Shown: in pieces, positions 19,257 to 63,533 of the stretch | How the letters are laid out: the number at the start of each line of letters is the position of its first letter | Position numbering within the stretch: the first letter of the stretch is position 1 | Source: an uncultured Planctomycetales bacterium | Lineage (GTDB): Bacteria > Omnitrophota > Gorgyraeia > Gygaellales > Profunditerraquicolaceae | Length of the DNA: 64,000 bases | Assembly (NCBI GenBank): GCA_964603585.1 | Contig: CAZRVK010000005.1 | Coordinates: forward strand, 90,027-154,026 | Direction: 5' to 3' | The notes under the pieces: generated by a model | Database searches by the model: none | Seen by the model: only the letters and a program-made list of their open reading frames with translations | What the model was told of the DNA's origin: nothing | Made by a program: the position numbers and the translations under genes

Positions 19257-19257
19257 G

Positions 19258-20952: not shown

Positions 20953-20963
20953 GAGAAAAAAAT

Positions 20964-22347: not shown

Positions 22348-22356
22348 TGTAGCCCT

Positions 22357-22686
22357 ATGTTAACAATCCTGCTTTTGACCATATCTAATGTGTTTATGAC
22401 CTTTGCCTGGTATGGGCATTTGAAATACAAGCACTCTCCTTTATGGATCGTAATCCTTATCAGCTGGGGGATTGCCTTTGCCGAGTATTGTTTTCAGGTG
22501 CCGGCCAACCGCATCGGTTCTTACAAATATTCTGGCGCGCAGCTGAAAACGATCCAGGAAGTGATTACCCTGGTGGTTTTTACGGTGTTTTCCGTGCTTT
22601 ATCTCAAAGAGGAATTCAAATGGAACTATGCCGTAGGATTTGTTTTTATCCTGGCGGCGGTATTCTTTATTTTTAAAAAGTGGTGA
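22357..22686 (+). CDS. Small DMT-like membrane protein (DUF486-type, 3-4 TM)
   Basis: 109 aa, strongly hydrophobic. The architecture resembles the DUF486 half-DMT family. Confidence 0.45.
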   Translation: MLTILLLTISNVFMTFAWYGHLKYKHSPLWIVILISWGIAFAEYCFQVPANRIGSYKYSGAQLKTIQEVITLVVFTVFSVLYLKEEFKWNYAVGFVFILAAVFFIFKKW

Positions 22687-22700
22687 TGGGCGGATAATCC

Positions 22701-23570: not shown

Positions 23571-23586
23571 TTACAAACTTAAAACT

Positions 23587-39652: not shown

Positions 39653-40270
39653 ATGGTTAAGGTTAAAATCTGCGGGATAACCAATCTTAAAGATGCCTTG
39701 GCTGCAGTAGGGGCCGGGTGCGATGCTTTGGGTTTTGTGTTTTATAAAAAAAGCCCCCGCTATATTACACCGGCGAAGGCGGCCGGCATAATCAGATGCC
39801 TGCCGGCAGGTATTATTAAGATCGGTGTTTTTGTCGATGCCTCCGAGAAAACAATTAAGAGGATCTCTACTGTTTGCCGCCTTGATCTATTGCAGTTCCA
39901 TGGGCATGAGACAGCTGGCTTCTGCAAAAAATTCAGGGGTTTAAAGATCATTAAGGCATTTCGCATAAGGAATAAAGAGGATTTAGCGTGTGTCTTGGAT
40001 TATAAGGTTTTTGCTTATCTTTTCGATGCTTTTTCAAGGTCAGGCTTTGGAGGAACAGGCAAAAAGTTCGACTGGAAGTTGTTGAGGCATCTGAAAAAAC
40101 CTACCCGCCCGGTCTTTCTTTCCGGAGGGCTTACTGCCCGTAACGTCGGAAAAGCGATAAGTTTACTGCATCCTGATTGGGTGGATGCCTGTACTTCCCT
40201 GGAGGCAACCCCCGGCAAGAAAAACCACAAAAAACTGAAAGCCTTCATTTCCCGGGCAAAAAACAATTAA
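39653..40270 (+). CDS. trpF: Phosphoribosylanthranilate isomerase
   Basis: 'KVKICGITNLKDALAAVGAGCDALGFVF' is the TrpF N-terminus. Confidence 0.85.
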   Translation: MVKVKICGITNLKDALAAVGAGCDALGFVFYKKSPRYITPAKAAGIIRCLPAGIIKIGVFVDASEKTIKRISTVCRLDLLQFHGHETAGFCKKFRGLKIIKAFRIRNKEDLACVLDYKVFAYLFDAFSRSGFGGTGKKFDWKLLRHLKKPTRPVFLSGGLTARNVGKAISLLHPDWVDACTSLEATPGKKNHKKLKAFISRAKNN

Positions 40271-40275
40271 GGTCT

Positions 40276-41799: not shown

Positions 41800-41807
41800 G
41801 CATATTA

Positions 41808-43048
41808 ATATGTATAAAGTAATAGAAAAGTGCAGGATTTGCGGAAACCCTGATTTGGTTGAGGTTGTTAATTTAGGCAAGATGATGTTAACGGGTGTTT
41901 TTCCCAGATCAAGATCAGAAGGCATCACTTTCGGCCCGGTTAGCCTGGTGAAGTGCTTTGGCTCTACGCAAGCCTGCGGCCTGCTCCAGTTAAAACAATC
42001 ATATGATCCTGCCCAGTTATACGGGACAAATTACGGGTATCGTTCGGGACTTAATCGCAGTATGGTGGAACATCTGCATAGAAGGGTTGACCATATTTTG
42101 GATATGGTCAAGATTAAAAAGGGTGACCTTGTCATCGATATCGGCAGTAATGACGGGACAATGCTTTCGGTTTATCCTCCAGGTGAGTTTGATCTTGTGG
42201 GGTTTGATCCTGTCGCTGTTAAGTTTAAAGGGTTTTATGCCCCACGGATCAACCTCGTTTTCGACTTCTTTTCTAAAGATATATTAGCCAGGGACTTTAA
42301 GGATAAAAAGGCAAAGATCATTACCTCGTTTTCCATGTTTTATGACTTGGAATGCCCGCTTTCTTTTATGCGAGGAATTTCTGAATCCTTAGATCAAGAA
42401 GGGATCTGGCTGTTTGAACAGAGTTATATGCCGCTGATGTTAAAGAAGATATCTTTTGATACGATCTGCCAGGAACATCTGGAATATTATGCCTTAAAAC
42501 AGGTAAAATGGATGGCGGATAAGGCCGGACTAAAGATCATTGGGGTTGAGTTCAATGATATTAACGGAGGAAGTTTTTCTGTAACCGCGGCCAAAAGCAC
42601 TTCTTCTTATCCCGAAGCCGCTGATCTCGCCTGGCTTGTGGAGCAGGAAAGGCTTGCAGGACTTGATCTTTTGGATACCTATCATGAGTTTTCCAAAGAT
42701 ATTGAGAAAGCCAAGAAGGATTTGTGTGATTTTATCAATAAGGTTAAAGCTGAAGGGAAAAAGATCTTTGGGCTTGGGGCGTCCACAAAGGGCAATGTTA
42801 TCCTGCAATATTGCGGGATCACGGATAAGGATATCCCTTTTATTGGCGAGGTCAATCCCGAGAAATTTGCGGCCTACACTCCTGGAACATTTATCCCGAT
42901 CATCCCGGAAGATGATTTATTAGCGATGTTCCCGGATTACCTTTTGGTTCTGCCGTGGCATTTTAAGGATTTTTTCCTTAAAAGCCCTAAATTCAAGAAC
43001 ACTAAACTGGTATTTCCTTTGCCTGAAATAGAGGTTGTAGAAGCGTAG
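41808..43048 (+). CDS. NDP-hexose C-methyltransferase-like protein (TylCIII/NovU family: N-terminal Zn-binding domain, SAM MTase, C-MTase C-domain)
   Basis: N-terminal 'CRICGNPDLVEVVNLG' zinc-ribbon domain (Methyltransf_13-like). Class I SAM fold 'VIDIGSNDGT'. C-terminal domain of about 150 aa. Confidence 0.65.
43007..43048. repeat. 42-bp 3' end of the C-methyltransferase gene, duplicated imperfectly (36/42) at 44502-44543
   Basis: 'ctggtatttcctttgcctgaaatagaggttgtagaagcgtag' versus 'ctggtgttttctttgcctgaaatcgaggttgtataagtatag'. Both end in TAG. The pair brackets the B12-rSAM gene exactly. Confidence 0.75.
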
Positions 43049-44500
43049 ATGGCGAACATACTGCTGATTTCAATAAACGATTTTAATGCGGAGGGATTGC
43101 GTATTCTGTCTGCAGTGCTGAAGAATAACCAGCATCAAGCTCATATCGGTTTTATTAAGAGCTACGATATAGGCAAGAAAGCCGAGGAATATGATTGGAC
43201 CGGGATAGATAATACAGGCCGGGAGTTCCGGTATGCCCGAGGCTCTGCGATCAGTGATACGGAAAAAACGATCCTTCTGTCTTTGATCCGGGATATCGGC
43301 CCAGGGATAATCGGTATTTCAGTGACCACGCCATTAAGAAAGACAGCCGCAGAAGTTTCTATGTTGATTAAAGGCAGCTTTAAGACACCGGTTATTTGGG
43401 GAGGAGTTGATCCGACGATCAATCCGCGTGAATGCCTGTCTTATTGTGATTTTGTTTGTATAGGAGAAGGCGAGAGGAGTATTGTTGATATCGCCTCATT
43501 ACTGGACCAAAATCGCGATATTCGTCAGGTAAATAATTTAGCGTACTTGGCCGGGAGCGAGTTGATTAAAAACCGTCTTTATCCTTTGATCCCTGATTTA
43601 GCCAGCCTTCCGTTTAAGGATATAGATAGTAACGGTAAGTTCCTGATCGAAGATAATTCATTGCTGAAGGATTTTAATATAGCAAGTTACACGAATAACC
43701 ATTCCTATCATATCATGAGCGCCAGGGGCTGTCCTTATCGATGCGCATATTGCTGTGAAGATTTCTATAAGGAATTATATGACAATCAGGTGTTCTTAAG
43801 AAGAAGGACTCCTGTTCACGTGGTGAACGAGTTGAAGAAAGCAAAAGAAATCCTGGGGTATAAACATGTTATATTCCAGGATGAGGTGTTCTCCTGTGAT
43901 TATGAATGGCTCCGGGAGTTCAGCGCTATGTATAAAAAACAGGTCAGCAGTGAATTCGCATGCAATATTTATCCAAATAAAGATATTGAAAAATATGTGA
44001 AGGTCCTGAAAGAGACGGGACTGATTTTTGCTTGTTTAGGGTTACAGTCAGGCAGCCAGGCAATAAACAGCAAGGTATTTAACCGGGTGTTTGACCGCCA
44101 GCTGTTCATAAAAACCGCGAATTTACTGCATTCTGCGGGGATAGGTTATTACGTTGATGTTATAACCTTCAATCCGTTTGAACAGGAAAAAGACCTGCAA
44201 TCGACTTTAAGTGTGCTCAAAGAACTGCCGAAACCGTTTAGTTTGTGCGTCAATAAATTATATGCCTGTAAAGGTACCCGGATACACGGATTGCTGCAGG
44301 GTTATAAGAGATCCCGGGGAGAAAAACCCCTCCGGGAAGGCGTTTTTATATATTATAGCTGCCTGTTCTGGCTGGCAGTGAATCACAGCAAGGCACTGGT
44401 TGGATTAATAGATAATATGCGGATATTTAAATATCTGGTGTCCTTACTGCATCGCTTCCGGAAAATAAGATCTAGGTGTCTGTCAATTCAAGGGCATTAA
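43049..44500 (+). CDS. B12-binding domain radical SAM protein (class B rSAM, putative C-methyltransferase)
   Basis: N-terminal cobalamin-binding Rossmann-like domain followed by the radical SAM 'CPYRCAYC' (CxxxCxxC) motif. The ATG abuts the preceding stop codon. Confidence 0.8.
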   Translation: MANILLISINDFNAEGLRILSAVLKNNQHQAHIGFIKSYDIGKKAEEYDWTGIDNTGREFRYARGSAISDTEKTILLSLIRDIGPGIIGISVTTPLRKTAAEVSMLIKGSFKTPVIWGGVDPTINPRECLSYCDFVCIGEGERSIVDIASLLDQNRDIRQVNNLAYLAGSELIKNRLYPLIPDLASLPFKDIDSNGKFLIEDNSLLKDFNIASYTNNHSYHIMSARGCPYRCAYCCEDFYKELYDNQVFLRRRTPVHVVNELKKAKEILGYKHVIFQDEVFSCDYEWLREFSAMYKKQVSSEFACNIYPNKDIEKYVKVLKETGLIFACLGLQSGSQAINSKVFNRVFDRQLFIKTANLLHSAGIGYYVDVITFNPFEQEKDLQSTLSVLKELPKPFSLCVNKLYACKGTRIHGLLQGYKRSRGEKPLREGVFIYYSCLFWLAVNHSKALVGLIDNMRIFKYLVSLLHRFRKIRSRCLSIQGH

Positions 44501-44501
44501 G

Positions 44502-44543
44502 CTGGTGTTTTCTTTGCCTGAAATCGAGGTTGTATAAGTATAG
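44502..44543. repeat. Relic copy of the C-methyltransferase 3' end (see 43007-43048)
   Basis: Direct sequence comparison. Lies in non-coding DNA after the rSAM stop. Confidence 0.75.
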
Positions 44544-44589
44544 GCGGATAAAATAATTCCGGGTTCGATCCATATATTTTTATATTAAT

Positions 44590-45657
44590 ATGATTTTCAA
44601 CTGGGGTTGTATTTTTCATTCATTGGTCCTGACAGTTTCTTTTGTGTTTTCTTTTATCCTGGCAAGAAGGAACAGGTCTTTTTGGGCCTTTCTTTTTAGC
44701 TTGGGTATTGGTTTATTGCTTTTTGAGCTGGCAATAGCATTAATGCTATATTTTCCTCTGTTTGCCAGGTTAGGGCCGCGGGGGTTCCTGCGGAATATAT
44801 ATATGAGTGGGTATCGAAATATAATCCAGCTGGAACCGGAGTTTGCCCGTTACGATCCATATCTCAAATATACCCTCAAACCGGGAGTTTTTCTGTTCCG
44901 CAACCCGGAATTTGCTAATGAGTTCAGGGTTAACAGCCTTGGGGTACGTGACGATGAATTCTCTTCAGAGTCTCCCGAAATAGTCGTAGTAGGGGATTCC
45001 TTGCCCATGGGCTGGGGAGTTGGCCAGGATCAAACATTCGCTCAAGTGCTCGAACAATCAAGCGGGTTAAAAGTCTTGAATGCCGCTGTTTCTTCTTACA
45101 GTACTGTAGAAGCTCTGCGCATAATCGATAGAATAGATATTTCAAAGGCAAAATACCTCATTATCGCTTATGGGCATGGCAAGTATTTCGAGAACCTTGG
45201 TTACTATAAGGCGCAGGACAAGTTCAAGGTCTTGAGCCGTAAAGAATACGAGCAGGCATCGGACAGTTATCACAAGCTGAAAGAATACTTGCCAATGAAA
45301 TATACAAGCCTTGCCTTCCTGGAATTAAGAAACAGATTGTTCCATATTTCGCCTCCTGTAATTTCTATACCTATGGAGACAGAGGCGAAAGTTTTTCTAA
45401 ACGCCGTTGTTAAGGCAAGCCATAAGGATTTAAGCGGGATTAAAATAATTGTTTTATGCGAGAAAGATTTTGTCGAACCATTAAAAAGAGCTGTTGCCGC
45501 ATTTAAAACGCCCGGGCATTTTATAAGGGGGGTGACAATTATTGGTCAGCCGGAAATAATAGGCGATCGTGCATATATCCTTGATGATCATCCGACAGCC
45601 GAGTGGCATAAAGCTGTTGCCGTTGAAATAGCCGGGATTTTGAGGGAAAATGGTTAG
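44590..45657 (+). CDS. Membrane-anchored SGNH/GDSL-fold hydrolase/acyltransferase-like protein (paralogue 1)
   Basis: Two N-terminal TM helices. Block I 'VVVGDSLPMGWG' and block V 'DDHPT'. Confidence 0.55.
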   Translation: MIFNWGCIFHSLVLTVSFVFSFILARRNRSFWAFLFSLGIGLLLFELAIALMLYFPLFARLGPRGFLRNIYMSGYRNIIQLEPEFARYDPYLKYTLKPGVFLFRNPEFANEFRVNSLGVRDDEFSSESPEIVVVGDSLPMGWGVGQDQTFAQVLEQSSGLKVLNAAVSSYSTVEALRIIDRIDISKAKYLIIAYGHGKYFENLGYYKAQDKFKVLSRKEYEQASDSYHKLKEYLPMKYTSLAFLELRNRLFHISPPVISIPMETEAKVFLNAVVKASHKDLSGIKIIVLCEKDFVEPLKRAVAAFKTPGHFIRGVTIIGQPEIIGDRAYILDDHPTAEWHKAVAVEIAGILRENG

Positions 45658-45676
45658 TAAGGGATAAAGATTTGGG

Positions 45677-45711
45677 GCGGCAGGCAATTTCCCCTGCCGC
45701 TTTTACTTCTT
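45677..45711. terminator. Rho-independent terminator between convergent genes (8-bp GC stem GCGGCAGG/CCTGCCGC, 8-nt loop, T-tract)
   Basis: The hairpin is followed by 'TTTTACTTCTT' on the + strand. It lies directly downstream of the stops of both 44590-45657 (+) and 45703-46899 (-). Confidence 0.6.
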
Positions 45712-46899
45712 ATATTCGGCCAGAAAAATATCCGCCATTAAACGATGGCCTTTTTCATTAAAATGCATGTCGTCTTTAATGAAATATTCACTAACGGCCG
45801 GTTGCGCGCTGGTTTCTTTATCGCCGTCTACGAAGTAGGGGAAAGAGTTGATAAAATCCACCTTGCGCTTTTTACACCATTGGCTCCAGTGTTTGGCATG
45901 GATCGAGTCCAGATCATGATGGATGACTTGTAGCGGCCACGGGTAAACCACCACCGTAAGTTTGATCTTATTCTTTTTTAGCAGATCATACAGTTTATCC
46001 ATATAAAACTGCATTTCACGGATCCCTTGCTGGCCATATTCCCTATATAGTTTATCGTCAATTGTCCATGCGCTTATGTTATAAATGTCAACATCTCTTT
46101 GCAGGGTAGTTTCTTCCTTTGGGGCAAAGTGGCTGTATAAATTACTTATAATCGTATATGATAGTATCGAATTATTTTTGAAACTGGCTTTAAACCTTCT
46201 CCACAGGGTCATATAGTATCCTTCGGTTTTATCAATTGTGCATGCCGGCACGTATCCTTGCGCATCAGACCAGACAACGTTGCCGCTTTCGTCCAAAGAA
46301 TAGTTTGTTGCTTCATTAGCCGCGTCGCTTATATCCAGGAAAACGGCTAACCGGTCGAATTTTAAACCGGCATCTTCGATAAGATACTTTATCTTTCTCC
46401 AGTAGATGATCGGCGAATATGAGCTTACCCCGGCATTGAGTACTTCGATGTTTTCTTTGGATAATGCTGTATCGATCAGCCCGGCAAATGTATGTTCATA
46501 ATTTATGCCTAATCCTTCCGTAAAAGAGTCTCCGATAAGGACAAGGCGAATGTTCTCCGGGATCAAAGGGATCTGTCTTGTTGATTTGTCCCGGAATCCC
46601 AGGGAATTGGTATAATAATCTGACCTGTTGCATCCCCAAATGACCCCGAGAACGGTTTTATTTTTGGCCAGGTCATGATGGTATAGTTTCGATTGCTCCC
46701 GGTAAGCTTTTTCCAGCCTTTTATACTCGATATTGTGACGTTCTTCTTGTCTTGCCGCCCAGGAATACCCGTGCATGAACCTGTAGATATTGGCGCTTAA
46801 GTAATCAAGGGTAAGAGCGGTTATTATAAGAAAACACAGGATTGTTTTCTTGGGATGGCGTTCGAATAGGGCGGAATTACTATTTTTCTTGTTTTCCAT
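45703..46899 (-). CDS. Membrane-anchored SGNH/GDSL-fold protein (paralogue 2)
   Basis: N-terminal TM. 'LVLIGDSFTEGLG' block I and 'DDMHFN' block V. Confidence 0.55.
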   Translation of the reverse strand: MENKKNSNSALFERHPKKTILCFLIITALTLDYLSANIYRFMHGYSWAARQEERHNIEYKRLEKAYREQSKLYHHDLAKNKTVLGVIWGCNRSDYYTNSLGFRDKSTRQIPLIPENIRLVLIGDSFTEGLGINYEHTFAGLIDTALSKENIEVLNAGVSSYSPIIYWRKIKYLIEDAGLKFDRLAVFLDISDAANEATNYSLDESGNVVWSDAQGYVPACTIDKTEGYYMTLWRRFKASFKNNSILSYTIISNLYSHFAPKEETTLQRDVDIYNISAWTIDDKLYREYGQQGIREMQFYMDKLYDLLKKNKIKLTVVVYPWPLQVIHHDLDSIHAKHWSQWCKKRKVDFINSFPYFVDGDKETSAQPAVSEYFIKDDMHFNEKGHRLMADIFLAEYKK

Positions 46900-47928: not shown

Positions 47929-48636
47929 ATGATAAATACCGTCATTGAGTTCAAGAATGCTTCAAAGAGGTATCATTTACGGGAAAAGCTTTTTTCATCC
48001 CGGGATTACTTATGGGCTTTACGGGATATTTCTTTTACGGTCGCCAAAGGCGAATCCGTAGGACTGATCGGAGCAAACGGCGCCGGAAAGACTACGGTCA
48101 TGAGGCTGGTATCTTCTATTACCAGGCCTACAGAGGGAGAGGTGTCGGTTGCCGGTTTAGTAGTGCCGTTAATATCGGTTGAGGGAGCGGTTGATCTTAC
48201 CTTAACCTGCCGGGAGAATATTTATCTTATTTGTGCTTTATTCGGCCTTAATATGGCAGATATAAGAAAAGAAACGCCAGAGATCATCGAATTCGCCGGC
48301 CTTCGTGGTTTTGTCGATACGCAGCTTAAAAGGCTTTCGCGGGGGATGATCACACGCCTTTCGTTTTCGATATCCGTCCATGTGCCTGCGGATATCATGC
48401 TTATCGATGAAGTGCTGACTTTGGGAGATAGGGAATTCCAGGATAAATGTTTTACCAAGATCAATGAATATAAAAGATCGGGGAAAACCATAATATTCGT
48501 TTCGCATTCCATGGATGATCTAAGGAGAATCTGCGATAGGATAATCTGGTTTGATAAAGGAAGAATATTAAATGATGGCCCTAAGGACACTATTATAGAT
48601 GAATATTCCGCGGCCAAAGAAGATCCTCTTAGTTAG
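47929..48636 (+). CDS. ABC transporter ATP-binding protein (Wzt/TagH-like, short form without a carbohydrate-binding C-domain)
   Basis: Walker A 'GANGAGKTT', signature 'LSRGM', Walker B 'IMLIDEV'. Confidence 0.85.
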   Translation: MINTVIEFKNASKRYHLREKLFSSRDYLWALRDISFTVAKGESVGLIGANGAGKTTVMRLVSSITRPTEGEVSVAGLVVPLISVEGAVDLTLTCRENIYLICALFGLNMADIRKETPEIIEFAGLRGFVDTQLKRLSRGMITRLSFSISVHVPADIMLIDEVLTLGDREFQDKCFTKINEYKRSGKTIIFVSHSMDDLRRICDRIIWFDKGRILNDGPKDTIIDEYSAAKEDPLS

Positions 48637-49819
48637 CCATCTTTGCCGGGATAACTTCCTGGAAGGCGCAGGCCTTTATCTGCTGTGGCTGGGAGAAAAG
48701 ATCTCGCAATATGGTTTAGGGGAGCCGGTATTCTTATCTCCTGGCCCAGGCTCGGTCAATCGTTTGGCTGAAGTCTCCGGCCTTAAGCCTTTAATCAGGC
48801 ATTACGATCTATTCTGGGATATATGGAACTATGACCCGGATATTGAACGAAAGTTCTCTGATTTTGTCTGTACGAACGCTCTAACGGTCAAGGCCCTGCA
48901 GGAATTGTTCATTGCCAGCAAGATCGATCTTGTCGTGGTAAATTGCCTGGTTAACCCTTTGCCTGCGGTGGCAGCCAGCCGGCTGGGGATCCCGGTTATC
49001 TGGAATATCCACGAAACACTCGATCCATTTAATGGCGATAGGCATAAGATAATGAGGTTATTTAATCGCCGTCAGCATAAATCCGCGGTTTCGGGGATAC
49101 TAAGGAAGTTTTCCGTGCATCTAAATTTCGTATCAAACCTTTCTTTCGAGAGTTTTTCTTATAAGAATAACTTGCGCGGTCATTCAAGCATCATTCCACC
49201 ACCGGTAAGAGATTATCTTTTTCAGGACGCGCTTCTTTTTACTAAGAGGGAAGAACCGGAGATGCCTGTTATAGGATTTGCCGGTACGCATGTAAAACAT
49301 AAGGGGATAGAGGATTTCCTTAAGGCCGCGGGGGTGTTGATTGAAAATGGTTACCGGGTGAGGTTCCTGGTTTGCGGAGCAGATTCTTCGCAGGCATACC
49401 GTGTGCATCTTAAGGATCTTATAAGTAAATATAAATTAGAGGGGCATATCGAGATGCTTGGGCTTATAAGTGATATGCGTGGTTTTTACCGGAAGATCGA
49501 TATTTTCGTCATGCCTTCGTCTTATCTGGAGCCTTATGGGATGGTGGCCGCTGAAGCCATGGCATACGGGATCCCGGTCATTATTTATCGCAAATCCGGG
49601 GCAGGGGAGTTAATAAAGAATGGGGAGAATGGATTTTTGATCCGGGGTGATTATAGGTTGATAGTAAATGGCATCATCCGTTTATTAGAGGATGTGGAAT
49701 TGCGCCGGAATGTGGGAGTAATGGCATCTCGCAGCGTAAGGGAAAGGTTATCTCCGGACCGTATATTCGGGGAGTATCTAAATATCATCGAAAGATCACT
49801 GGCAACCGTCCGAAAATGA
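48599..49819 (+). CDS. GT-B glycosyltransferase (GT4 family)
   Basis: C-terminal 'EPYGMVAAEAMAYGIPVI' EX7E-type motif. Confidence 0.8.
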   Translation: MNIPRPKKILLVSHLCRDNFLEGAGLYLLWLGEKISQYGLGEPVFLSPGPGSVNRLAEVSGLKPLIRHYDLFWDIWNYDPDIERKFSDFVCTNALTVKALQELFIASKIDLVVVNCLVNPLPAVAASRLGIPVIWNIHETLDPFNGDRHKIMRLFNRRQHKSAVSGILRKFSVHLNFVSNLSFESFSYKNNLRGHSSIIPPPVRDYLFQDALLFTKREEPEMPVIGFAGTHVKHKGIEDFLKAAGVLIENGYRVRFLVCGADSSQAYRVHLKDLISKYKLEGHIEMLGLISDMRGFYRKIDIFVMPSSYLEPYGMVAAEAMAYGIPVIIYRKSGAGELIKNGENGFLIRGDYRLIVNGIIRLLEDVELRRNVGVMASRSVRERLSPDRIFGEYLNIIERSLATVRK

Positions 49820-51231
49820 CAAGAAAGATCAATTATTTGATCCCGGCTCTTATTATCATCATTGTTTTAACATACTATAAAGTGGTTTCCTTTTATTTTA
49901 GATATGACACTTTTGTTTGGCTCGATAAAACGATATTTGACCATTTTAACTGGCAGTATTTCTTTGGTTACAACAAAGCCGCCGCATTCTATTTGACCCC
50001 CGTGGGCAATTTATTCTTTCTTTTAATGTACAAAGCATTCGGGTTATCACCTGTAGGCTATCACCTGGTTTTACTGCTCATACATATTACAGCGGCACTT
50101 TTGGTGTATCGTTTAACTTTCAAAATCGCCCAAAATAATGAGTGCGCATTCCTGGCGGCGCTTTTTTTCGGTATATATCCGGCTAATATCGAGGCCGTAG
50201 TTTATATTGCGGCATTTCACCATTCTCTTTGCGCAGTTTTTATCATGGTGTCGTTCTTAATGTTTGTGCGTTTTAAGGAATTGCTTCAGACCAGGGCCTA
50301 TGTCTTGAGCTTGGTATTCTACACCTTATCCCTGGTGGTCAAACCAACGGCAATAATCGTGCCTTTATTGTTTTTGGGGTACGAATGTATTTTATCCCGT
50401 GGTTTTTCGATAAACCGGGATATCAGAAAATATATACCGTTTGCGATTATCTCTTTTGCCTATCTGCTGGTCAGTTTTGCAATCGGCAGCTTTAATCAGG
50501 CGTATTTACCCATGCAGAACCAGTATTACTATATAGGAAGGCATATCCTGGAGAATATTTTCGGTTACTTTAAATACATGGTATTTCCTTTTGATAATGC
50601 CGTTAAAGCGGTCGCGGATATTTTTAGCCCGCAGGTTAGCCGGGTTTTTGGGGCGGCACAAGGAATTTTTATGGGGGCGGTATTTTCTCTGGCGGTTTAT
50701 CTTTCCTTAAGGGACAAAAGGATAAGGTTCTTGTTTTTTTGGGTAATCGTTTCACTTTTGCCGATACTGCCGTTTGAATTTTCTCCGCAGTCACGGTATG
50801 TCTATCTTTCTTCAATAGGATTATGTGCCTTGTTTGCGTTGGCCTTAAGATCAGAGAAGTTCATGCGAAAATGGGTGTCAAGGGCTGTAACCCTGGTTTT
50901 TATCCTGCTTTATTTCTTATCCTGCCGGGTCAATCTGTATCAGTATGAAAATGATTATATCTTATGGAAAAACTGGGCTATGGATATCGGTTCCATTCCT
51001 AAACCTTTTCCTGAAAAGGGAAAGCTGTATTTACTGGATTTTCCGAAACTTGCAGTTTCCCGTGATGATGAGATAAGTTCTTTAGCGCGGGTGGTTTTGA
51101 ACAGCCGGGATTTGGAAGTGGAAGCGGTTTATCCACAAGCGCAGGGAGGATATTCTTTACCGGAGACGGAGGTTTATTCATTAAAATACGAGAACAGGAG
51201 ATTGATTCCGTTTAAAAGAGCGCCAAGATGA
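49816..51231 (+). CDS. Polytopic membrane protein, GT-C-like (PMT_2/ArnT-like) glycosyltransferase candidate
   Basis: About 11 predicted TM helices. Its N-terminal region resembles the other two GT-C genes, including 'YHLVLLLIHITAALLVYRL'. The first loop contains D/E residues. Confidence 0.45.
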   Translation: MTRKINYLIPALIIIIVLTYYKVVSFYFRYDTFVWLDKTIFDHFNWQYFFGYNKAAAFYLTPVGNLFFLLMYKAFGLSPVGYHLVLLLIHITAALLVYRLTFKIAQNNECAFLAALFFGIYPANIEAVVYIAAFHHSLCAVFIMVSFLMFVRFKELLQTRAYVLSLVFYTLSLVVKPTAIIVPLLFLGYECILSRGFSINRDIRKYIPFAIISFAYLLVSFAIGSFNQAYLPMQNQYYYIGRHILENIFGYFKYMVFPFDNAVKAVADIFSPQVSRVFGAAQGIFMGAVFSLAVYLSLRDKRIRFLFFWVIVSLLPILPFEFSPQSRYVYLSSIGLCALFALALRSEKFMRKWVSRAVTLVFILLYFLSCRVNLYQYENDYILWKNWAMDIGSIPKPFPEKGKLYLLDFPKLAVSRDDEISSLARVVLNSRDLEVEAVYPQAQGGYSLPETEVYSLKYENRRLIPFKRAPR

Positions 51232-57372: not shown

Positions 57373-57400
57373 TTGATTTCTCGTCTTAAATAGGTATAAT
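57373..57400 (+). promoter_or_regulatory. Candidate promoter (TTGATT, 16-bp spacer, TATAAT) for GT-C paralogue B
   Basis: A -10 TATAAT at 57395-57400 lies 86 nt upstream of the ATG at 57486. Confidence 0.35.
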
Positions 57401-57485: not shown

Positions 57486-59030
57486 ATGTCCTTACTCCAT
57501 TGGTTAAATAAAAACCGGTTATCAATAATCCTGATATTTACGCTGGTTTTCAGCGCATTCCTGCATTTTCGGGATCTTGGCGGCGTAACCATCCTGGATG
57601 ATGATGAATCCCGTGCCTTTGTCCTTCAAGGGAGCGGGCCGTTACTCTATTTTATCTGCCGGCCATTCTATCTTTTATCGGGGCGTGATCAAGCCAGCGC
57701 GTTCTATATCGCCGCACTCCTTGGTTTTATCAATATCATTTTGTTTTATCTTCTCTGCCGCAAGTTGTTCGATAAGGACCTTTCGAAACTGGCGGCCATA
57801 ATCTATGCCTTGTATCCTGTGCGCATGAATTACGCGCGCACTTTATATCCGGCGGTATTCATAGAAAGCGCGTTCTTATTAGCCCTGCTTTTTCTATTTT
57901 CGGGCTTAAACACGCGTAAATCATGGCAGGGATTTGTTTTTGGGGTATCTACTGTCGCTATTTTCTTCATGCATTATTCCGGTTACGCCCTGGTCATTGC
58001 TCTGATATTGGCAGTGATAGGATTAAGCATCTTTACCCGGGATAAGATCAACAGGTTGTGTTGGTTCCAGTTTAACGTTCATTTTGTGCTGGGGGTGGTA
58101 TTAGGGTATTGCCTGTTCTGGTTCCTGTTATTCTGGCATTCTCCGGGGTATGATTATCTGGGACAGCTTTTTTGGTTTATGAAAAGAGAAGAAACGTACA
58201 TGGCACATATCCGTACCCCGGTATATTTTCACAGCGGGATATTCTACCAGATGTTCTCTTCTCTGCAATATATCCTGATAAGCTCGGTTACGGCGATCTC
58301 CTGTTTATACGTATTGGTTTATTCAATCATCATACGGAAGAAGCCGGTATTATTGTTCTTTTCCGTTTTTTGCATCGCCGCATCTCTTTTGGCGGTTGTC
58401 GCGTTTTTAGGACGGCATCCTTTAAAAATACGGCATTTAGTCTGGATGGTTTCTGTTTATGCCGTCTCTATTGCACAGTTAATTTCTTTTTTGTCTGCCC
58501 AAAGAAAGTGTATTGCAAATTTGGCAGCTAAAGTTATCCTTTGCGTATTTATCTCTGTTGCCGCTTACGAAAGTTACCAGATTACCGCCGAAACATTCAA
58601 TTTAACGCCTATTAAGAGCTGGCTTAAACAGAATAATATCCCCAAGAGCCAGATCATAACTTCATGGTGGATGCTTAACCGGGTGGATGACCCGGATGTA
58701 GCTTCATTTATCCCCACTGATTTTCGCAAAAACGCCGGTATCGGCGGCTCTTTCGGTTTTGTACTGATCTGGCCGTTTATTTTTGATGCATACCAGCAGG
58801 GCAGTTGTAAATACATCCTTACTTCAGGCATAAGCGGCAGGTGTTATATCGGTTATGACGATATAATGCTTAAACACGTAAAACCGGTTATGTCATGGCT
58901 GCATCCGTATTTTAAGTTCAAGCGCCGGCCTTTTTGCCGTCCGGTACCGCTTTATATCAATCTTTACCGGTTGGATGATGTTTTTTCGTCTTCTAATCTG
59001 GGGTCTCTAAAATCACGCGGTGAGGAGTGA
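57486..59030 (+). CDS. GT-C fold membrane glycosyltransferase (PMT/ArnT-like), paralogue B
   Basis: Same architecture as 40276-41799. Contains the 342-bp identical tract, and the C-terminal domain is conserved at protein level ('ESYQITAETF.LTPIK...GSCKYILTSGISGR'). Confidence 0.6.
   Translation: MSLLHWLNKNRLSIILIFTLVFSAFLHFRDLGGVTILDDDESRAFVLQGSGPLLYFICRPFYLLSGRDQASAFYIAALLGFINIILFYLLCRKLFDKDLSKLAAIIYALYPVRMNYARTLYPAVFIESAFLLALLFLFSGLNTRKSWQGFVFGVSTVAIFFMHYSGYALVIALILAVIGLSIFTRDKINRLCWFQFNVHFVLGVVLGYCLFWFLLFWHSPGYDYLGQLFWFMKREETYMAHIRTPVYFHSGIFYQMFSSLQYILISSVTAISCLYVLVYSIIIRKKPVLLFFSVFCIAASLLAVVAFLGRHPLKIRHLVWMVSVYAVSIAQLISFLSAQRKCIANLAAKVILCVFISVAAYESYQITAETFNLTPIKSWLKQNNIPKSQIITSWWMLNRVDDPDVASFIPTDFRKNAGIGGSFGFVLIWPFIFDAYQQGSCKYILTSGISGRCYIGYDDIMLKHVKPVMSWLHPYFKFKRRPFCRPVPLYINLYRLDDVFSSSNLGSLKSRGEE
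57684..58025. repeat. 342-bp tract 100% identical to 40474-40815 (copy 2)
   Basis: Direct comparison, 342/342. Confidence 0.9.
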
Positions 59031-59057
59031 CCGGATTGAGGTTTAAGGAGGTAAAAT

Positions 59058-60785
59058 TTGTCAGTTATCCTGGGAATTGTAAATAAACGCGTTCATTCGG
59101 GTTTTGACGAGGATACGCTCTCTGGATTCCGCGATTGCCTTTCCTTGGGTGGACAGCGTAAGGTCTACAGCCTTGATTGCGGCAAGGCTATGTTCTATTG
59201 TGCGGATCATCCGGATGTAAATCAAAATTTAATAGCCCGCGATGAACGCAATGCACAGGTAACTGTATTTGGAGGAAGGATCCTTGAATACCGGGGCGCC
59301 GATAAAGCGGCATTTTCCTGTAAGCCTTGGGTGGACCCGGCGCTTTTCTGCCTGGAAGGTTTTTCTCAATCTGGGGTATCATTCTTAAAGGGCCTCAATG
59401 GTACCTTTGGAGTGGCATTATGGGATAAAAGAAAAGAACGGTTGATTTTGGCAGGCGATACATTTGGGCTTTATCCGTTGTTTTATTATGATTCCAATGA
59501 AATATTCATTTTTTGTTCAGAATATCAGCCGATACTAAAATACAAGGAGCTTAAACCTGTCCTTGATCCGCAGGCAGTTGCAAAGTATTTTATCTTTGGT
59601 GCAGTTATGGGAGAGAGGACCCTGATTAAAGGCGTCTTAAGGCTTCCACCGGCATCGGCCTTAACACTGAAGGATGGTTTAGCCGGGATAGATGCTTATG
59701 AACATGTGGATATCCATATCCAGAGGGACAGGCCAAAGGGATATTTCATTGAGCGTTTCGAAGACAGGCTAAGGCATGTGGTAACATCCGGGTTAAGTCG
59801 GTTTGACATAGACCACTGTGATTTATCCGGAGGCTTGGATACCCGGTTCATTCTTGGCCTAATCCCGGTTGGGGCGGCCCAGGGCTTGAAGTTTATTACG
59901 TATATGAACGCGTATCTTGATGAAAAAACGGACAGAAACGTCATTTGCGCAAAACGCCTGTCCCGGCAGTTTAAATTGCGCCACAATGTGATTGCCGGCA
60001 CCAAACCGGTTGATTTTTCTCCGTATTTTTTTGAGCGAATAAGGTATGTAGAAACAAATAACCCTGCGCTTTCTGGTAGGGGCGGAGGGGAATTCTTAGG
60101 AGGGGAGTTCATTAAAATCTATAACCAGTTCTTCAGGCCGAGTAATGATCCCGGGCAGTTAAGGCGCCAGTTACTCGGGTATTTTTCAAAACGGTTTGTA
60201 AATAGCCTCGGATGCCTGGAAGACTTACTGGTCCGCCGCCTGAACAGCAAAGAGGCTTTAGCTCGAGAAAACACGGTTTTTTTATCCTCGGTTGAACTGA
60301 TCTTCCGGTCGTTCCTTTCGTCGCTTTATTACGGAAGTTTCCGCGGCACGGCGTTTACCTGCCCTTGGGAATGCTTTTTAGGCACTGAATTTTCCCCGTT
60401 TACCGATAAGGAGTTCTTAAAGCTCATAGCTATAACCCCTCCGGAATATCTTATGGATTACGGCTTGTATATCGCTATTCTGAAAAGACACCACCGCAAT
60501 TTATTGAAACTGCCGTATTTCTCCTGCGCATGCCGGCATCCCGGGATCAGGCATTTTGGGCCTGGGAGGCATACTTTTATGCGCAAAGAGAACCGGCATA
60601 TTAAGTTTATCAATACCTGCATTAAGGATCCGGATGCCTGGGTTAAGCAAAATCTTATCTGCCGGCAAAAGGCAAAGTCGCATCTTAGGTATTACCATTC
60701 GGTGCGGGACCTCTTTGATCAAAAGATGTATGAACTGGCAAAGGTCACCGATTTCCAGGCATGGCTTAACTACATAAAAAACTGA
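59058..60785 (+). CDS. Asparagine synthetase B-like amidotransferase (Ntn-type N-domain with Ser in place of the nucleophilic Cys; PP-loop ATP pyrophosphatase domain)
   Basis: TTG start with 'AGGAGG' RBS 8 nt upstream. N-terminus 'MSVILGIV' versus the canonical 'MCGI'. 'GTFGVALWDKRKERLILAGDTFGLYPLFY' is AsnB-like. The PP-loop reads 'DLSGGLDTR'. Confidence 0.75.
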   Translation: MSVILGIVNKRVHSGFDEDTLSGFRDCLSLGGQRKVYSLDCGKAMFYCADHPDVNQNLIARDERNAQVTVFGGRILEYRGADKAAFSCKPWVDPALFCLEGFSQSGVSFLKGLNGTFGVALWDKRKERLILAGDTFGLYPLFYYDSNEIFIFCSEYQPILKYKELKPVLDPQAVAKYFIFGAVMGERTLIKGVLRLPPASALTLKDGLAGIDAYEHVDIHIQRDRPKGYFIERFEDRLRHVVTSGLSRFDIDHCDLSGGLDTRFILGLIPVGAAQGLKFITYMNAYLDEKTDRNVICAKRLSRQFKLRHNVIAGTKPVDFSPYFFERIRYVETNNPALSGRGGGEFLGGEFIKIYNQFFRPSNDPGQLRRQLLGYFSKRFVNSLGCLEDLLVRRLNSKEALARENTVFLSSVELIFRSFLSSLYYGSFRGTAFTCPWECFLGTEFSPFTDKEFLKLIAITPPEYLMDYGLYIAILKRHHRNLLKLPYFSCACRHPGIRHFGPGRHTFMRKENRHIKFINTCIKDPDAWVKQNLICRQKAKSHLRYYHSVRDLFDQKMYELAKVTDFQAWLNYIKN

Positions 60786-62282
60786 ATGAAAGAAGAACTT
60801 TCCCTAAAACCCGGTATTGTGCTGGTCCATTCCCCGTATATGTATATCCCACAAACTTACGGAAATGGAGGTGGGTTTATCCGTCCTCCTTTGGGGGTGG
60901 CTTCTCTTTCTGCATACCTTAAGCAAAAAGGTTTTGCTCCGTTTGTTTATGACTTAAACATTAAATTATTCCTTGGCGTTTCATCCGGGCATAGGTATCT
61001 CTGGGATAAGGAGTCCAAGCACCTTTGGATGAGGCGGGAAAAGTTTTTTAAACAAGTGCTCCCTAAAATACGCGCCGAGGTAGAAACTACGGCGGAAAAT
61101 ATTATCGCGCATGCTCCTGACCTGGTTTGTTTTTCAGTTTATAAGACCTCTATTGTTTTTTCCTTGTATTTAGCCGGTTTACTTAAAGAAAAAAGAAAAG
61201 ATATTTCCGTAATTTTGGGTGGCCCTGAATGCAAGGCATCTAATGCCGCAGAGATTATCGATAGTTCCCCGGTAGATGCAGTTGTGGTCGCAGAAGGCGA
61301 GGAAACCCTTAATGAAATAGTGCATAATTTCCGAAATAAGCGCATGTTAATTCCCTGCAGAGGTGGTTTTTTCCGTTCTGAAGGTAAGATCATCTTTGGC
61401 GGGCACAGGCCGTTTATTTCGGAGATCGATAAATTGCCGCTCCCGGATTTTTCCGGCATAATCGATGATTATTACAGGCTTAATAAGGACAATCTGGCCT
61501 TACCGATCTTGTGGCTGCGCGGATGTACTAACAAATGCACATTTTGTTCCAGTCCGTTACTGTGGGGTCATGCCCGTTCAAAGTCTCCGCAGGTGATTTT
61601 CCGGGAATTCAAAGAACAGAGCACTAAATATGGAATTTCACGTTTCATTAAGAATGATTCCATTTTGTCTGGTTCCGCTCAACACATAGATGAGGTATGC
61701 GACCTTTTAATAAAAAATGGCCTGGCTGTTCAATGGGGAGGGTCATCCCGGATCGATGATTTCTTAAGGCCTGAACTACTGACCAAAATGCGTAAGGCCG
61801 GATGTATGCATTTGAGTTATGGTATAGAAAGCGGCTCGCAAAAGATCATCGATGCCATGAATAAGAATTTCTCACTCTCCTTTGCCCGGGAGGTTTTGTC
61901 TGCGACTAAGCGCGCCGGGATCCGGGTTTGCGTTTATATCATGTATGGATACCCGGGGGAATCACTGGTTGATTTTTTTAAGACCATCGCGTTTCTTATT
62001 AAGAACAGGCGGTATATCGATTCCCTTGATTGTTCCCGGTTCGGTATTTCTTACTCCCTGTTAGCGGTTCATCCCGCCAAATACGGGATATCCCTGGATA
62101 AAAACGGAAGGTACCGTCCCCGGTATTATTTTATTTTTGATATTCTCACCAAAGCAAAAGGCCTTTTCCTGGCCCTGTATTGTTTTATTGCTTATAGGGA
62201 AGTCTTGGATAATACTGTCGGAAGCATTTATAAGCCTTTACGGTTCATCCGGAGCAGATTCTTCAGGAAAAATATACCTTGA
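60786..62282 (+). CDS. B12-binding domain radical SAM protein (second class B rSAM)
   Basis: N-terminal B12-binding-like domain followed by 'GCTNKCTFCSS' (CxxxCxxC). The start abuts the AsnB-like stop. Confidence 0.8.
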   Translation: MKEELSLKPGIVLVHSPYMYIPQTYGNGGGFIRPPLGVASLSAYLKQKGFAPFVYDLNIKLFLGVSSGHRYLWDKESKHLWMRREKFFKQVLPKIRAEVETTAENIIAHAPDLVCFSVYKTSIVFSLYLAGLLKEKRKDISVILGGPECKASNAAEIIDSSPVDAVVVAEGEETLNEIVHNFRNKRMLIPCRGGFFRSEGKIIFGGHRPFISEIDKLPLPDFSGIIDDYYRLNKDNLALPILWLRGCTNKCTFCSSPLLWGHARSKSPQVIFREFKEQSTKYGISRFIKNDSILSGSAQHIDEVCDLLIKNGLAVQWGGSSRIDDFLRPELLTKMRKAGCMHLSYGIESGSQKIIDAMNKNFSLSFAREVLSATKRAGIRVCVYIMYGYPGESLVDFFKTIAFLIKNRRYIDSLDCSRFGISYSLLAVHPAKYGISLDKNGRYRPRYYFIFDILTKAKGLFLALYCFIAYREVLDNTVGSIYKPLRFIRSRFFRKNIP

Positions 62283-62294
62283 GTCCAAACTTCG

Positions 62295-63533
62295 TCATGG
62301 CGAAGGGACAATTCTTTTGCTTGTCAGGTAATCCAGCAATTCCTCGGCGTAGAATTGGTGTAATATACGGCTGGGGTGGCCGTTGGCAGGGTTGGCCCAT
62401 AATTCCTTCCTGATTTGTTGCGGAGTATAACTGCCGAAACGCGCGTTCGCTTTCGGGTACAGGTCAAGGTAATCAATCCCATTTTCATCAAGCACTTTAA
62501 AAAGCATCCCGTAGTAATATCCAAGGTCCTTTAGTTTGCCCTGATAAGATACCCGGTTGTATCTTTCCATGGTCGGCAGGGTAATAAAGAGGCAGGGTAT
62601 TTTTATTTTTTGTAAATGGTCCTTTAATTGCGCGACCACTTTTTTATACTCCTGCCAATTCCCGCCGGAATAAAGATCCCTCCAATACATTTCGTAGGTA
62701 ATAGACTCGATCCCGCGGTTAATAAGATAAGCAGTGTTCTTGAATAAATTGTTCTTTATGCGCAGGTAGCGGCGGGGTTTTGCCAGCCCTCGTACCTCGG
62801 GGTCATTCTTTACGAACCCGATGATAAGATAATCGATCTGGAATTTGCTGCCTTCGCCAGTTAAGAAATCGAGTTCATCCTGGGTGCTCCATCCGTGCCG
62901 ACCCCAGGTCAATACTTCGATCTTATTCCCGTATAATTTTTCTAATTGTGCCGCCAGGATGTGGCTGAAGGAATCCTTTCTTTCTAATCCGGAACCCCAG
63001 ACATAGGAATCGCCCAGGATTGCTATCCTAAAGGCCGTTTGCCGGGATTTCTTATACTCACGGTGTTTGTCATCAAAACCCCAGCGGTTGCTGTTTTTTA
63101 TCTTTTCGGCATTGATTGCTTTGTCATCGGCCAGGTATTTTACAGAACCAAGGATTTTCTGGTTATTTTGCGTGCTTAAATAATATTCGGTCAAGGTTAA
63201 GGTGGATAATAAGAGAGACAGGTTTATTAGGAAGATGGTAATGCGGCTTTTTTTCTTGAATATATAATCCAAAAAGAAGGTTGCGGTTATAATCGAGATA
63301 ATGGCGAGCCAGTTTTTTGCGGCCTTAAATGCCAGAGCTTGGCAATAGCTGGATAGTAAAACAAAAGATGGGTTCCGGCAGAAAGCATACACCGCATTCA
63401 GCAGTTTATGTAAATACCCGATTATTGATAAACTGTCAAAACTGTAGCAGAACACGGATATTACCACCAGCATTATCGATGCAAACTTAAGTTGGCTGAA
63501 AAACCTATATTTTTTCTTTTCGGATGATTTCAT
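62295..63533 (-). CDS. Polytopic N-terminal membrane domain fused to an SGNH/GDSL-fold domain (paralogue 3)
   Basis: 3-4 N-terminal TM helices. 'IAILGDSYVWGSGLE' block I and 'ANGHPS' block V. Confidence 0.5.
   Translation of the reverse strand: MKSSEKKKYRFFSQLKFASIMLVVISVFCYSFDSLSIIGYLHKLLNAVYAFCRNPSFVLLSSYCQALAFKAAKNWLAIISIITATFFLDYIFKKKSRITIFLINLSLLLSTLTLTEYYLSTQNNQKILGSVKYLADDKAINAEKIKNSNRWGFDDKHREYKKSRQTAFRIAILGDSYVWGSGLERKDSFSHILAAQLEKLYGNKIEVLTWGRHGWSTQDELDFLTGEGSKFQIDYLIIGFVKNDPEVRGLAKPRRYLRIKNNLFKNTAYLINRGIESITYEMYWRDLYSGGNWQEYKKVVAQLKDHLQKIKIPCLFITLPTMERYNRVSYQGKLKDLGYYYGMLFKVLDENGIDYLDLYPKANARFGSYTPQQIRKELWANPANGHPSRILHQFYAEELLDYLTSKRIVPSP

Follow-up and report, generated by a model that had tools for sequence, protein, structure and literature searches.

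The 64,000-nucleotide (nt) stretch of DNA analysed here (hereafter the window) encodes an AsnB-like protein (hereafter the asparagine synthetase-like, or AS-like, protein) followed directly by a B12-binding radical S-adenosylmethionine (SAM) enzyme. We propose, with a probability of roughly 0.55, that the AS-like protein is an ATP-dependent, glutamine-independent amide-forming enzyme for glycan tailoring, whose function is carried by its PP-loop domain. Throughout the clade to which the protein belongs the glutaminase is predicted to be dead, the N-terminal nucleophile (Ntn) domain persisting as a folded, catalytically dead remnant, and Ser2, which stands at the position of the canonical Cys nucleophile, is most probably not a functional replacement for it. 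The AS-like gene is the middle gene of a predicted operon within a glycan cluster of the ABC-transporter type; the gene for a PMT_2-like glycosyltransferase (GT) of the GT-C type precedes it and the B12 radical SAM gene follows.

The AS-like gene starts with TTG behind a good ribosome-binding site and the encoded protein begins MSVILGIV, as proposed by the first-pass annotation of this DNA. Homologues begin MSLIFGF, MSIIFGF and MAAIFGY at the same aligned residue, the first of them from an ATG codon, which supports the TTG start. A longer form with an upstream Met-Cys start, an alternative raised by the first-pass annotation itself, is impossible because an in-frame TAA (59052-59054) lies two codons before the TTG and overlaps the last base of the AGGAGG box.

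An exhaustive search of 1.84 billion cluster representatives identified 58 with E < 1e-30 (about 58 clusters at 50% identity). Position 2 was counted in 53 full-length representatives and the PP-loop in 65 aligned sequences, and 40 sequences (alignment A1) served as input for structure modelling. The N-terminal consensus of the clade is MSLILGIYSKK. Ser recurs at position 2, a recurrence that the first-pass annotation had proposed to check for Ser or Thr, in 31 of the 53 representatives, and 41 carry a small residue there (S, A, G, T, P or V); measured against an assumed second-position background of about 15%, the Ser count has a binomial p of about 4e-13, a value that ignores shared ancestry. 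Members with other residues (A, V, L, P, G, K, N, E, R, T) are spread over at least 12 separate tips of a neighbour-joining tree and are also present in the subclade of the AS-like protein itself (P0005, MA; P0006, MV; P0130, MP; P0143, MR). At least 12 independent replacements by the non-nucleophiles A, V, L, P, G, K, N, E or R were counted, and the PP-loop was intact every time. The same holds for 15 of 15 aligned members with neither Ser nor Thr at position 2, and the conserved function therefore does not need Ser2. Furthermore, three members begin MKSL..., with Ser as the third residue, so that Met removal alone cannot expose it.

The loss extends to the remaining glutaminase residues, which were compared by profile-profile alignment of the clade with 30 canonical MCG-type relatives and by column counts. 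The canonical invariants C2, R26, R45, N70 and D95, among them the counterparts of E. coli Cys1, Arg49, Asn74 and Asp98, are not kept. The arginine of the HRG motif (the Arg26 equivalent) is not conserved, the columns of Arg49 and Asp98 hold no consensus residue (D50 and P94 in the AS-like protein, with mostly P, S or L in the Asp98 column), and the oxyanion residue Asn74 is replaced by S, G or A (G in the AS-like protein). Only the two Gly residues of the canonical site survive across the clade. Having neither the N-terminal Cys nor the glutamine-binding and oxyanion residues, the AS-like protein falls outside the class II (Ntn) glutamine amidotransferases. Its N-domain has the Ntn-type four-layer fold, as indicated by a GATase_7 match of 51.2 bits (cut-off 25) and by the match of its structural model to the N-domains of AsnB, GlmS, PurF and EgtC. 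The scattered tips without Ser, the intact PP-loop in the absence of Ser or Thr at position 2 and the loss of the other glutaminase invariants together argue that Ser is not a substitute nucleophile. The first-pass annotation, which had described Ser as replacing the Cys nucleophile, was thus right that Cys is absent and that Ser occupies position 2, but this is not a like-for-like replacement, since the other glutaminase residues are lost too.

Ser2 most likely persists since a small residue permits Met removal and packs at the buried N-terminus, and not as a nucleophile. Burial of the N-terminus within the protein has been described for AS-like enzymes (PMC13060819). The N-domain also contains a clade-specific motif, DFSLxGxR (aa 25-34; 59130-59159), the Arg34 of which is found in 35 of 40 sequences and in 11 of the 15 members without Ser2; its aligned counterpart in the canonical HRGPD motif is the Asp. 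A MAFFT alignment that equated Arg34 with E. coli Arg49 was discarded as a misalignment, since D50 falls at Arg49 both by profile-profile alignment and by the succession of secondary-structure elements in the model.

The synthetase half contains the intact PP-loop (LSGGLDTR) that had been recognised in the first pass as SGGLDT. The clade pattern L[ST][GA]GxD[TS]R was identified in 65 of 65 aligned sequences, with Gly259, Asp261 and Arg263 present in all 65 and Leu256 in 63, and a PP-loop of the SGGxDS type opens the synthetase domain of the AS-like protein, as is characteristic of the PP-loop ATP pyrophosphatase superfamily. E345, in the counterpart of the canonical LSGxGGDExFGGY motif, is kept in 56 of 65 sequences, and D[KR]DV[IV][IC]A, PF.D and VP.EYL are further conserved motifs of the clade. 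ATP binding and pyrophosphate (PPi) release are accordingly well-supported predictions for the AS-like protein. The Lys following PFLD was considered as the catalytic lysine and abandoned, as this position varies even among canonical sequences.

The AlphaFold2 (AF2) model built on the 40 clade sequences is confident (predicted local distance difference test (pLDDT) 89.3, predicted template modelling score (pTM) 0.92) and matches PDB structures over both domains, the best of them being TsnB9 (E 9e-21), AsnB of E. coli, beta-lactam and carbapenam synthetases and human asparagine synthetase (ASNS). The clade profile likewise aligned with the canonical MCG profile over its full length (probability 100, E 1e-53). 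Among Pfam families the AS-like protein matched only GATase_7, over the N-domain (51 bits), and Asn_synthase did not reach E 0.01. NCBIfam yielded partial, near-equal matches below threshold to four families including N-acetylglutaminylglutamine amidotransferase. The glutamine-hydrolysing asparagine synthase family TIGR01536 scored 85.7 bits (cut-off 267.1) and covered aa 99-312 only, the lasso cyclase family NF033535 scored 78.9 bits (cut-off 525) and the PEP-CTERM/EPS-associated amidotransferase family TIGR03108 scored 78.3 bits (cut-off 817). By these scores the AS-like protein appears to be roughly equidistant from all named families.

The operon is tightly spaced, with 27 nt between the PMT_2-like and AS-like genes and 0 nt between the AS-like and radical SAM genes. 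The AS-like stop codon abuts the start of a class B radical SAM gene, in agreement with the first-pass annotation, and no GGAGG-like box was found in the 30 nt before the radical SAM ATG; the two genes have the sequence features expected of a translationally coupled pair. The partner has the domain composition of class B radical SAM proteins, i.e. an N-terminal B12-binding domain followed by a radical SAM core (PF04055, 63.8 bits) with a CX3CX2C motif. Its best NCBIfam matches were ApyD (NF050148) and TIGR03975, both families from pathways for ribosomally synthesized peptides with post-translational modifications (RiPPs) (E about 1e-41 each). The scores of 142.9 bits (cut-off 750) and 140.2 bits (cut-off 281.85), respectively, remained below the cut-offs, and no curated family was reached. 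The closest homologues of the partner (34-46% identity) occur together with genes for GT2, GT4, two or three PMT_2 proteins and Wzm/Wzt, where an AS-like gene is not always present. The partner could catalyse a methylation or another reaction.

The glycan cluster, also noted in the first pass, extends from 40177 to the end of the window, where it runs off. It encodes two PMT_2-like GT-C proteins, Wzm/Wzt, four GT4, three GT2, two GDSL proteins, a sugar C-methyltransferase and two B12 radical SAM proteins, and a fifth, partial Glycos_transf_1-like open reading frame (ORF) runs off the window end. In addition to the AS-like operon and the convergent GDSL gene (57486-63533), the cluster contains a second unit of like architecture (40177-46899), consisting of genes for PMT_2, a TylC3-type sugar C-methyltransferase, a B12 radical SAM protein and a 355-aa protein, and a convergent GDSL gene. 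As its tailoring enzyme this unit has the C-methyltransferase, and the other has the AS-like protein. The radical SAM proteins of the two units are just 22% identical. The PMT_2 paralogues (57486-59030 and 40177-41799) are 68% identical and share a 490-bp patch of 97.6% nucleotide identity (40331-40820 and 57541-58030). Outside this patch the identity is at most about 74%, a mosaic that suggests conversion between the two genes. ORF 40177-41799 had also been considered as a relative of the AS-like protein and was rejected, being a PMT_2 paralogue unrelated to it. Promoter-like sites are no more numerous in the 234-nt intergenic region that separates the operon from the divergent gene upstream than in shuffles of this region, and only the position of the site at 57373..57400 is suggestive. 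The Wzt ATPase of the cluster (47929-48636, 235 aa) lacks the C-terminal carbohydrate-binding domain Wzt_C, which is present in the Wzt proteins of the related loci L005 and L023, and Wzt in the window therefore probably does not read a terminal cap for chain termination.

Clade members were identified in Omnitrophota, Bacteroidales, Bacteriovoracales, Woesearchaeota and Methanosarcinales, and adjoin Wzm/Wzt, Wzx, GT2, GT4, PMT_2, GDSL and DegT genes in both bacteria and archaea (Table 1). Radical_SAM was the most common Pfam family among 79 neighbouring ORFs from ten further loci (10 of 79, including four with B12-binding and four with SPASM domains; p about 4e-6 against an assumed background of 2%). 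A glycan setting for the AS-like and radical SAM genes is well supported by these gene neighbourhoods, and their association is genuine though modular. Aminotransferase neighbours in L004, L034 and L058 hint at an amino sugar as the nucleophile in some loci. In L034 (5973-12227), the AS-like gene lies between fatty-acid-type genes (short-chain dehydrogenase/reductase (SDR), ketosynthase) and 4,6-dehydratase-like and DegT genes, an arrangement that would suit the ligation of an acyl carboxylate to an amino sugar. The locus of clade member P0004 (L004/L009/L025; Candidatus Omnitrophica CG11 scaffold PCWA01000089.1, approximately 1-21700) contains at least eight radical SAM genes. Two of its proteins, of 1175 and 705 aa, are fusions of a glycosyltransferase with a radical SAM-SPASM protein, which are unusual, and a 654-aa Polysacc_deac_1-DUF2334-Asn_synthase fusion is encoded directly 5' of the AS-like gene.

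Table 1. Sequence features of the AS-like operon and glycan cluster in the window, and gene content around AS-like genes in loci of clade relatives.
Feature or locus	Position	Strand	Remarks
Promoter-like site TTGATT-16-TATAAT	57373..57400	+	10/12 consensus positions; lies 5' of the operon, in the 234-nt divergent intergenic region
PMT_2-like (GT-C type) membrane glycosyltransferase	57486..59030	+	514 aa; first gene of the operon; PF13231, 38.7 bits
Shine-Dalgarno sequence AGGAGG	59047..59052	+	5 nt 5' of TTG at 59058
AS-like (AsnB-like) protein	59058..60785	+	575 aa; TTG start; N-terminal Ntn-fold domain without Cys1, aa ~1-200; C-terminal PP-loop synthetase-like domain, aa ~225-575
Ser2 codon TCA	59061..59063	+	At the canonical Cys nucleophile position
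PP-loop LSGGLDTR	59823..59846	+	aa 256-263; clade pattern L[ST][GA]GxD[TS]R
SGRGGGEFLGG	60072..60104	+	aa 339-349; counterpart of canonical LSGxGGDExFGGY; clade form G..GGE[FL]LGG
TGA-ATG junction	60783..60788	+	AS-like stop (60783-60785) abuts radical SAM start (60786); ...AAC TGA ATG AAA...
Class B (B12-binding) radical SAM protein	60786..62282	+	498 aa; PF02310 and PF04055
B12-binding domain	61065..61319	+	aa 94-178; PF02310, 52 bits
CX3CX2C motif CTNKCTFC	61524..61547	+	aa 247-254; radical SAM cluster motif
Membrane-anchored GDSL/SGNH protein	62295..63533	-	412 aa; convergent; stop 12 nt beyond the radical SAM stop
Unassigned ORF	44590-45657		355 aa; no Pfam match; weakly similar (E 1e-7) to the GDSL-like protein beside the L026 clade member
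ORF in the glycan cluster	49816-51231		471 aa; no Pfam match
L007 (Woesearchaeota)			Two GT2, then AS-like, PMT_2-like and a B12 radical SAM related to that of the window (E 5e-39)
L010			AS-like preceded by Wzm and Wzt and followed by a B12-type radical SAM gene
L011			Radical SAM gene on either side of AS-like, the upstream one a single base away
L033			Convergent radical SAM gene beside AS-like
L005			Wzm/Wzt (with Wzt_C domain), B12 radical SAM gene, FemAB-like
L056			PMT_2 and Wzx-type flippase
L026, L027			GDSL-like genes near AS-like
L008, L004			Glycosyltransferases, SPASM radical SAM (fused to each other in L004), DUF2334 (deacetylase domain in L004)
L034			Ketosynthase, SDR, 4,6-dehydratase-like gene, DegT aminotransferase

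In the proposed pathway, the AS-like enzyme would, with ATP, adenylate a glycan precursor at a carboxylate that belongs to a sugar acid or to an acyl or amino-acid substituent. An amide would then be formed with a nitrogen nucleophile that does not derive from glutamine hydrolysis, namely free ammonia or the substrate's own amine, the latter variant being modelled on beta-lactam synthetases and lasso cyclases. The neighbouring radical SAM enzyme would alter the same building block, most likely by C-methylation, and the GT-C enzyme would then transfer the finished unit outside the membrane. More tentatively, the clade might constitute a new class of glutamine-independent amide ligases that act together with B12 or SPASM radical SAM enzymes. 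In Omnitrophota, Bacteroidales and DPANN or methanogenic archaea, the two would decorate surface glycans, or scaffold peptides that are glycosylated, with a group that bears an amide and is C-alkylated. Binding or delivery of the amine partner would in that case be the new task of the N-domain, in which Ser2, Arg34 and the DFSLxGxR motif are conserved; we regard this wider reading as possible and rather doubtful.

Several observations weigh against our proposal of a glycan-directed amide-forming enzyme. Neither the annotated ORFs of the cluster, which the window end truncates, nor the loci whose genes were annotated one by one contained a UDP-sugar dehydrogenase or another obvious source of the carboxylate. 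Furthermore, clade members have G, S or T where E. coli has Asp351, and they do not retain the K.GF lysine; near these positions, the AS-like protein has E345 and basic residues at 507 and 510. The alignment is weak in the C-terminal region, where the model has a pLDDT of 72-75. Both residues are catalytic in AsnB and beta-lactam synthetase, and as neither is conserved at the aligned position, adenylation is a predicted activity of the AS-like protein. Ser2, at about 60% and well above background, could have a role of its own. The closest homologue of the AS-like protein (P0002, 39% identity; locus L003, ENA ERZ27283557 k119_2188894) is moreover followed (L003:3540-4306) by two PqqD/RiPP recognition element (RRE) genes and a 33-aa leader-like ORF MPEKNNSSQKTKKKYTKPKLTKYGNLKVITTLS, after which come two GT2 genes. 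This ORF matches the lasso leader motif YxxPxLx3Gx5T exactly, with only three residues after the Thr, and was the sole match to the motif in six frames of the window and the loci scanned alongside it. A similar layout is known from FzmZ/FzmA, where the C-terminus of a short scaffold peptide is modified by an AS-like enzyme (PMC13622209), and the 33-aa ORF looks like a scaffold peptide of the FzmZ type. Locus L003 thus suggests that some clade members, at least, act on a peptide, and the substrate class may vary within the clade.

The first-pass annotation had suggested that a uronic-acid residue is amidated, with ammonia or otherwise without glutamine, in a step coupled to radical C-methylation. 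In the version considered here, ammonia would yield a uronamide, in the manner of WbpS, and the same sugar would be methylated. The glycan cluster, the intact PP-loop and the abutting radical SAM gene are all consistent with this scheme, and with a dead glutaminase any ammonia must come from solution, a nitrogen source that canonical AS enzymes also accept (PMC13060819). We nevertheless consider it unlikely: a WbpS-type AsnB homologue would be expected beside a gene for a UDP-sugar dehydrogenase that supplies the uronic acid, and neither a dehydrogenase nor an epimerase of this kind was found among the annotated ORFs of 40177-64000, up to the window end that cuts the cluster, or beside the Pfam-annotated clade members whose neighbours were annotated gene by gene (the pooled scan of 79 neighbour ORFs shows the 25 most common families, and a single dehydrogenase hit could lie outside these). 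TIGR03108 scored only 78 bits of the required 817, and nothing ties the AS-like and radical SAM enzymes to one sugar. A different proposal makes Ser2 a genuine N-terminal nucleophile in the style of Ser-Ntn hydrolases, the N-domain hydrolysing an amide donor other than glutamine and passing the amine to the synthetase site. Ser is indeed the majority and probably the ancestral residue at position 2, the DFSLxGxR motif with its Arg34 lies in the same domain, and TsnB9, whose gamma-glutamyl donor is not glutamine, likewise carries Ser where the oxyanion Asn would stand (YSGETYN). The repeated replacements at position 2 with an intact PP-loop, the loss of the oxyanion Asn and of the Arg and Asp that hold the alpha-carboxylate and alpha-amino groups of the donor, and the Ser in third position of the MKSL... 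members make this improbable.

It is equally improbable that the AS-like protein of the window modifies the carboxylate of a peptide or protein in the manner of TsrC, PesC, FzmA or the lasso cyclases, with the radical SAM enzyme as a peptide C-methyltransferase and the glycan genes either coincidental neighbours or glycosylating the peptide. Locus L003, the RiPP families matched best by the radical SAM partner and the SPASM-type radical SAM genes adjoining several clade members speak for a peptide, and very short scaffold peptides are easily missed (PMC13622209). The window, however, contains no PqqD homologue, no ORF with the leader motif and no leader protease, and the tight operon leaves no room for a leader-like ORF; among all loci, which were scanned in the same way, only L003 was positive. 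Moreover, the RiPP family scores of both proteins are far under their cut-offs (143 vs 750 and 140 vs 282 for the radical SAM partner, 79 vs 525 for lasso cyclase), and the nearest relatives of the radical SAM partner sit with GT, PMT_2 and Wzm/Wzt genes. The analogy to RiPP tailoring drawn in the first pass consequently finds no counterpart in the window, where precursor peptide, RRE and protease are all missing. Least probable is that the AS-like protein is a pseudoenzyme, serving as a non-catalytic scaffold or substrate-binding partner of the radical SAM or GT-C enzyme. The lost glutaminase site and the missing equivalents of D351 and the K.GF lysine would fit such a role, but a PP-loop conserved in 65 of 65 sequences from bacteria and archaea, together with the conserved GGE.LGG motif, is hard to explain without ATP chemistry. 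Overall, we favour an amide-forming enzyme that acts on a glycan precursor.

The first 40 kb of the window contain housekeeping genes, including those of the Wood-Ljungdahl pathway (19228-26675), which encode formate-tetrahydrofolate (THF) ligase, a cyclodeaminase-like FTCD_C protein, FolD, MTHFR and the beta subunit of acetyl-CoA synthase/carbon monoxide dehydrogenase (ACS/CODH). One of these ORFs (19228-20952, 574 aa, TTG start) was considered as a paralogue of the AS-like protein and rejected, as it encodes formate-tetrahydrofolate ligase and shows no similarity. Rho (32250-33509) is 91-94% identical to Rho of Candidatus Omnitrophota metagenome-assembled genomes (MAGs) and, together with the Wood-Ljungdahl genes, indicates an anaerobic Omnitrophota bacterium.

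Cys-less AS-like enzymes are already established in the form of beta-lactam synthetases, carbapenam synthetases and lasso cyclases, and more generally AS-like enzymes without glutaminase are known from antibiotic and RiPP pathways, where each carries out unusual carboxylate chemistry leading to lactams, lasso rings, hydroxamates, hydrazides or nitriles. The principle of losing the nucleophile is accordingly not new, nor does Ser at the site of Cys represent a new catalytic device. New are the clade itself, which comprises approximately 58 clusters at 50% identity in bacteria and archaea and has neither a name nor a curated family, and the recurrence of its genes beside those of radical SAM enzymes in surface-glycan loci. 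No characterised clade member, no paper on the clade and no described function for it were found in the literature searched, which covers part of the literature, and searches on Cys-less AsnB homologues in polysaccharide clusters and on the archaeal threonine-attaching AglU gave nothing usable. The clade would extend the unusual chemistry of AS-like enzymes to the cell-surface glycans of largely uncultured bacteria and archaea. To our knowledge, radical SAM enzymes are rarely documented in polysaccharide assembly, and the repeated pairing points to chemically undescribed sugar modifications. For annotation, proteins that combine an MS[LIV][IL][LF]G N-terminus with LSGGxDTR should not be named "glutamine-hydrolysing asparagine synthase".

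AsnB and ASNS (PDB 1CT9 and 6GQ3; Foldseek E 2e-17) have the same fold of Ntn N-domain and PP-loop domain as the AS-like protein and share its SGGxD[ST] PP-loop and PF.D motif. The AS-like protein differs in lacking equivalents of Cys1, Arg49, Asn74 and Asp98, and in its location in a glycan operon instead of amino-acid metabolism. The best PDB match by both sequence and structure is TsnB9 (7YLZ), which, like the AS-like protein, has a residue other than Asn before the conserved Gly of the NGE motif. TsnB9 is a hydroxyamidotransferase whose hydroxylamine derives from a gamma-glutamyl donor and whose substrate is a polyketide acid (PMC13622209), whereas the AS-like protein has neither the nucleophile nor the donor-binding residues. 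WbpS-like amidotransferases of glycan pathways are glutamine-dependent and possess the Cys. Genes for these AsnB-type enzymes, which also include the amidotransferase of the XrtA/PEP-CTERM system (TIGR03108) and Tanf_01265 of T. forsythia, lie in clusters for surface glycans, and amidation of sugar acids or formation of acetamidino groups is their presumed role (PMC6120980).

AS-like enzymes adenylate carboxylates and convert them to amides, lactams, hydroxamates, hydrazides and nitriles, and members with unusual nitrogen chemistry, such as TsnB9, PesC and FzmA, keep emerging (PMC13060819, PMC13622209). Lasso cyclases of the McjC type and the RiPP-associated enzymes TsrC, PesC and FzmA, which amidate C-termini or form nitriles or hydrazides, likewise adenylate non-canonical substrates. 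The RRE and leader-peptide signature of these systems is shown by the closest homologue locus, L003, and is absent in the window. With the class B radical SAM methyltransferases GenK and Fom3, the partner shares the B12-binding domain, the radical SAM core and the CX3CX2C motif; in contrast to these enzymes and to TIGR03975 and ApyD, its nearest relatives are unnamed proteins in glycan loci. In beta-lactam and carbapenam synthetases, the N-domain lacks the Cys nucleophile and the adenylated carboxylate is attacked by an amine of the substrate. Beta-lactam synthetase (BLS, 1JGT) and carbapenam synthetase (CarA, 1Q15) are 12-14% identical to the AS-like protein, with a profile match to the N-domain alone (E 9e-6), no beta-lactam pathway genes lie near the AS-like gene and nothing suggests lactam formation. 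The likeness is mechanistic only, and these two enzymes, which match the AS-like model structurally with E about 1e-16, offer the best mechanistic analogy for a glutamine-independent AS-like enzyme.

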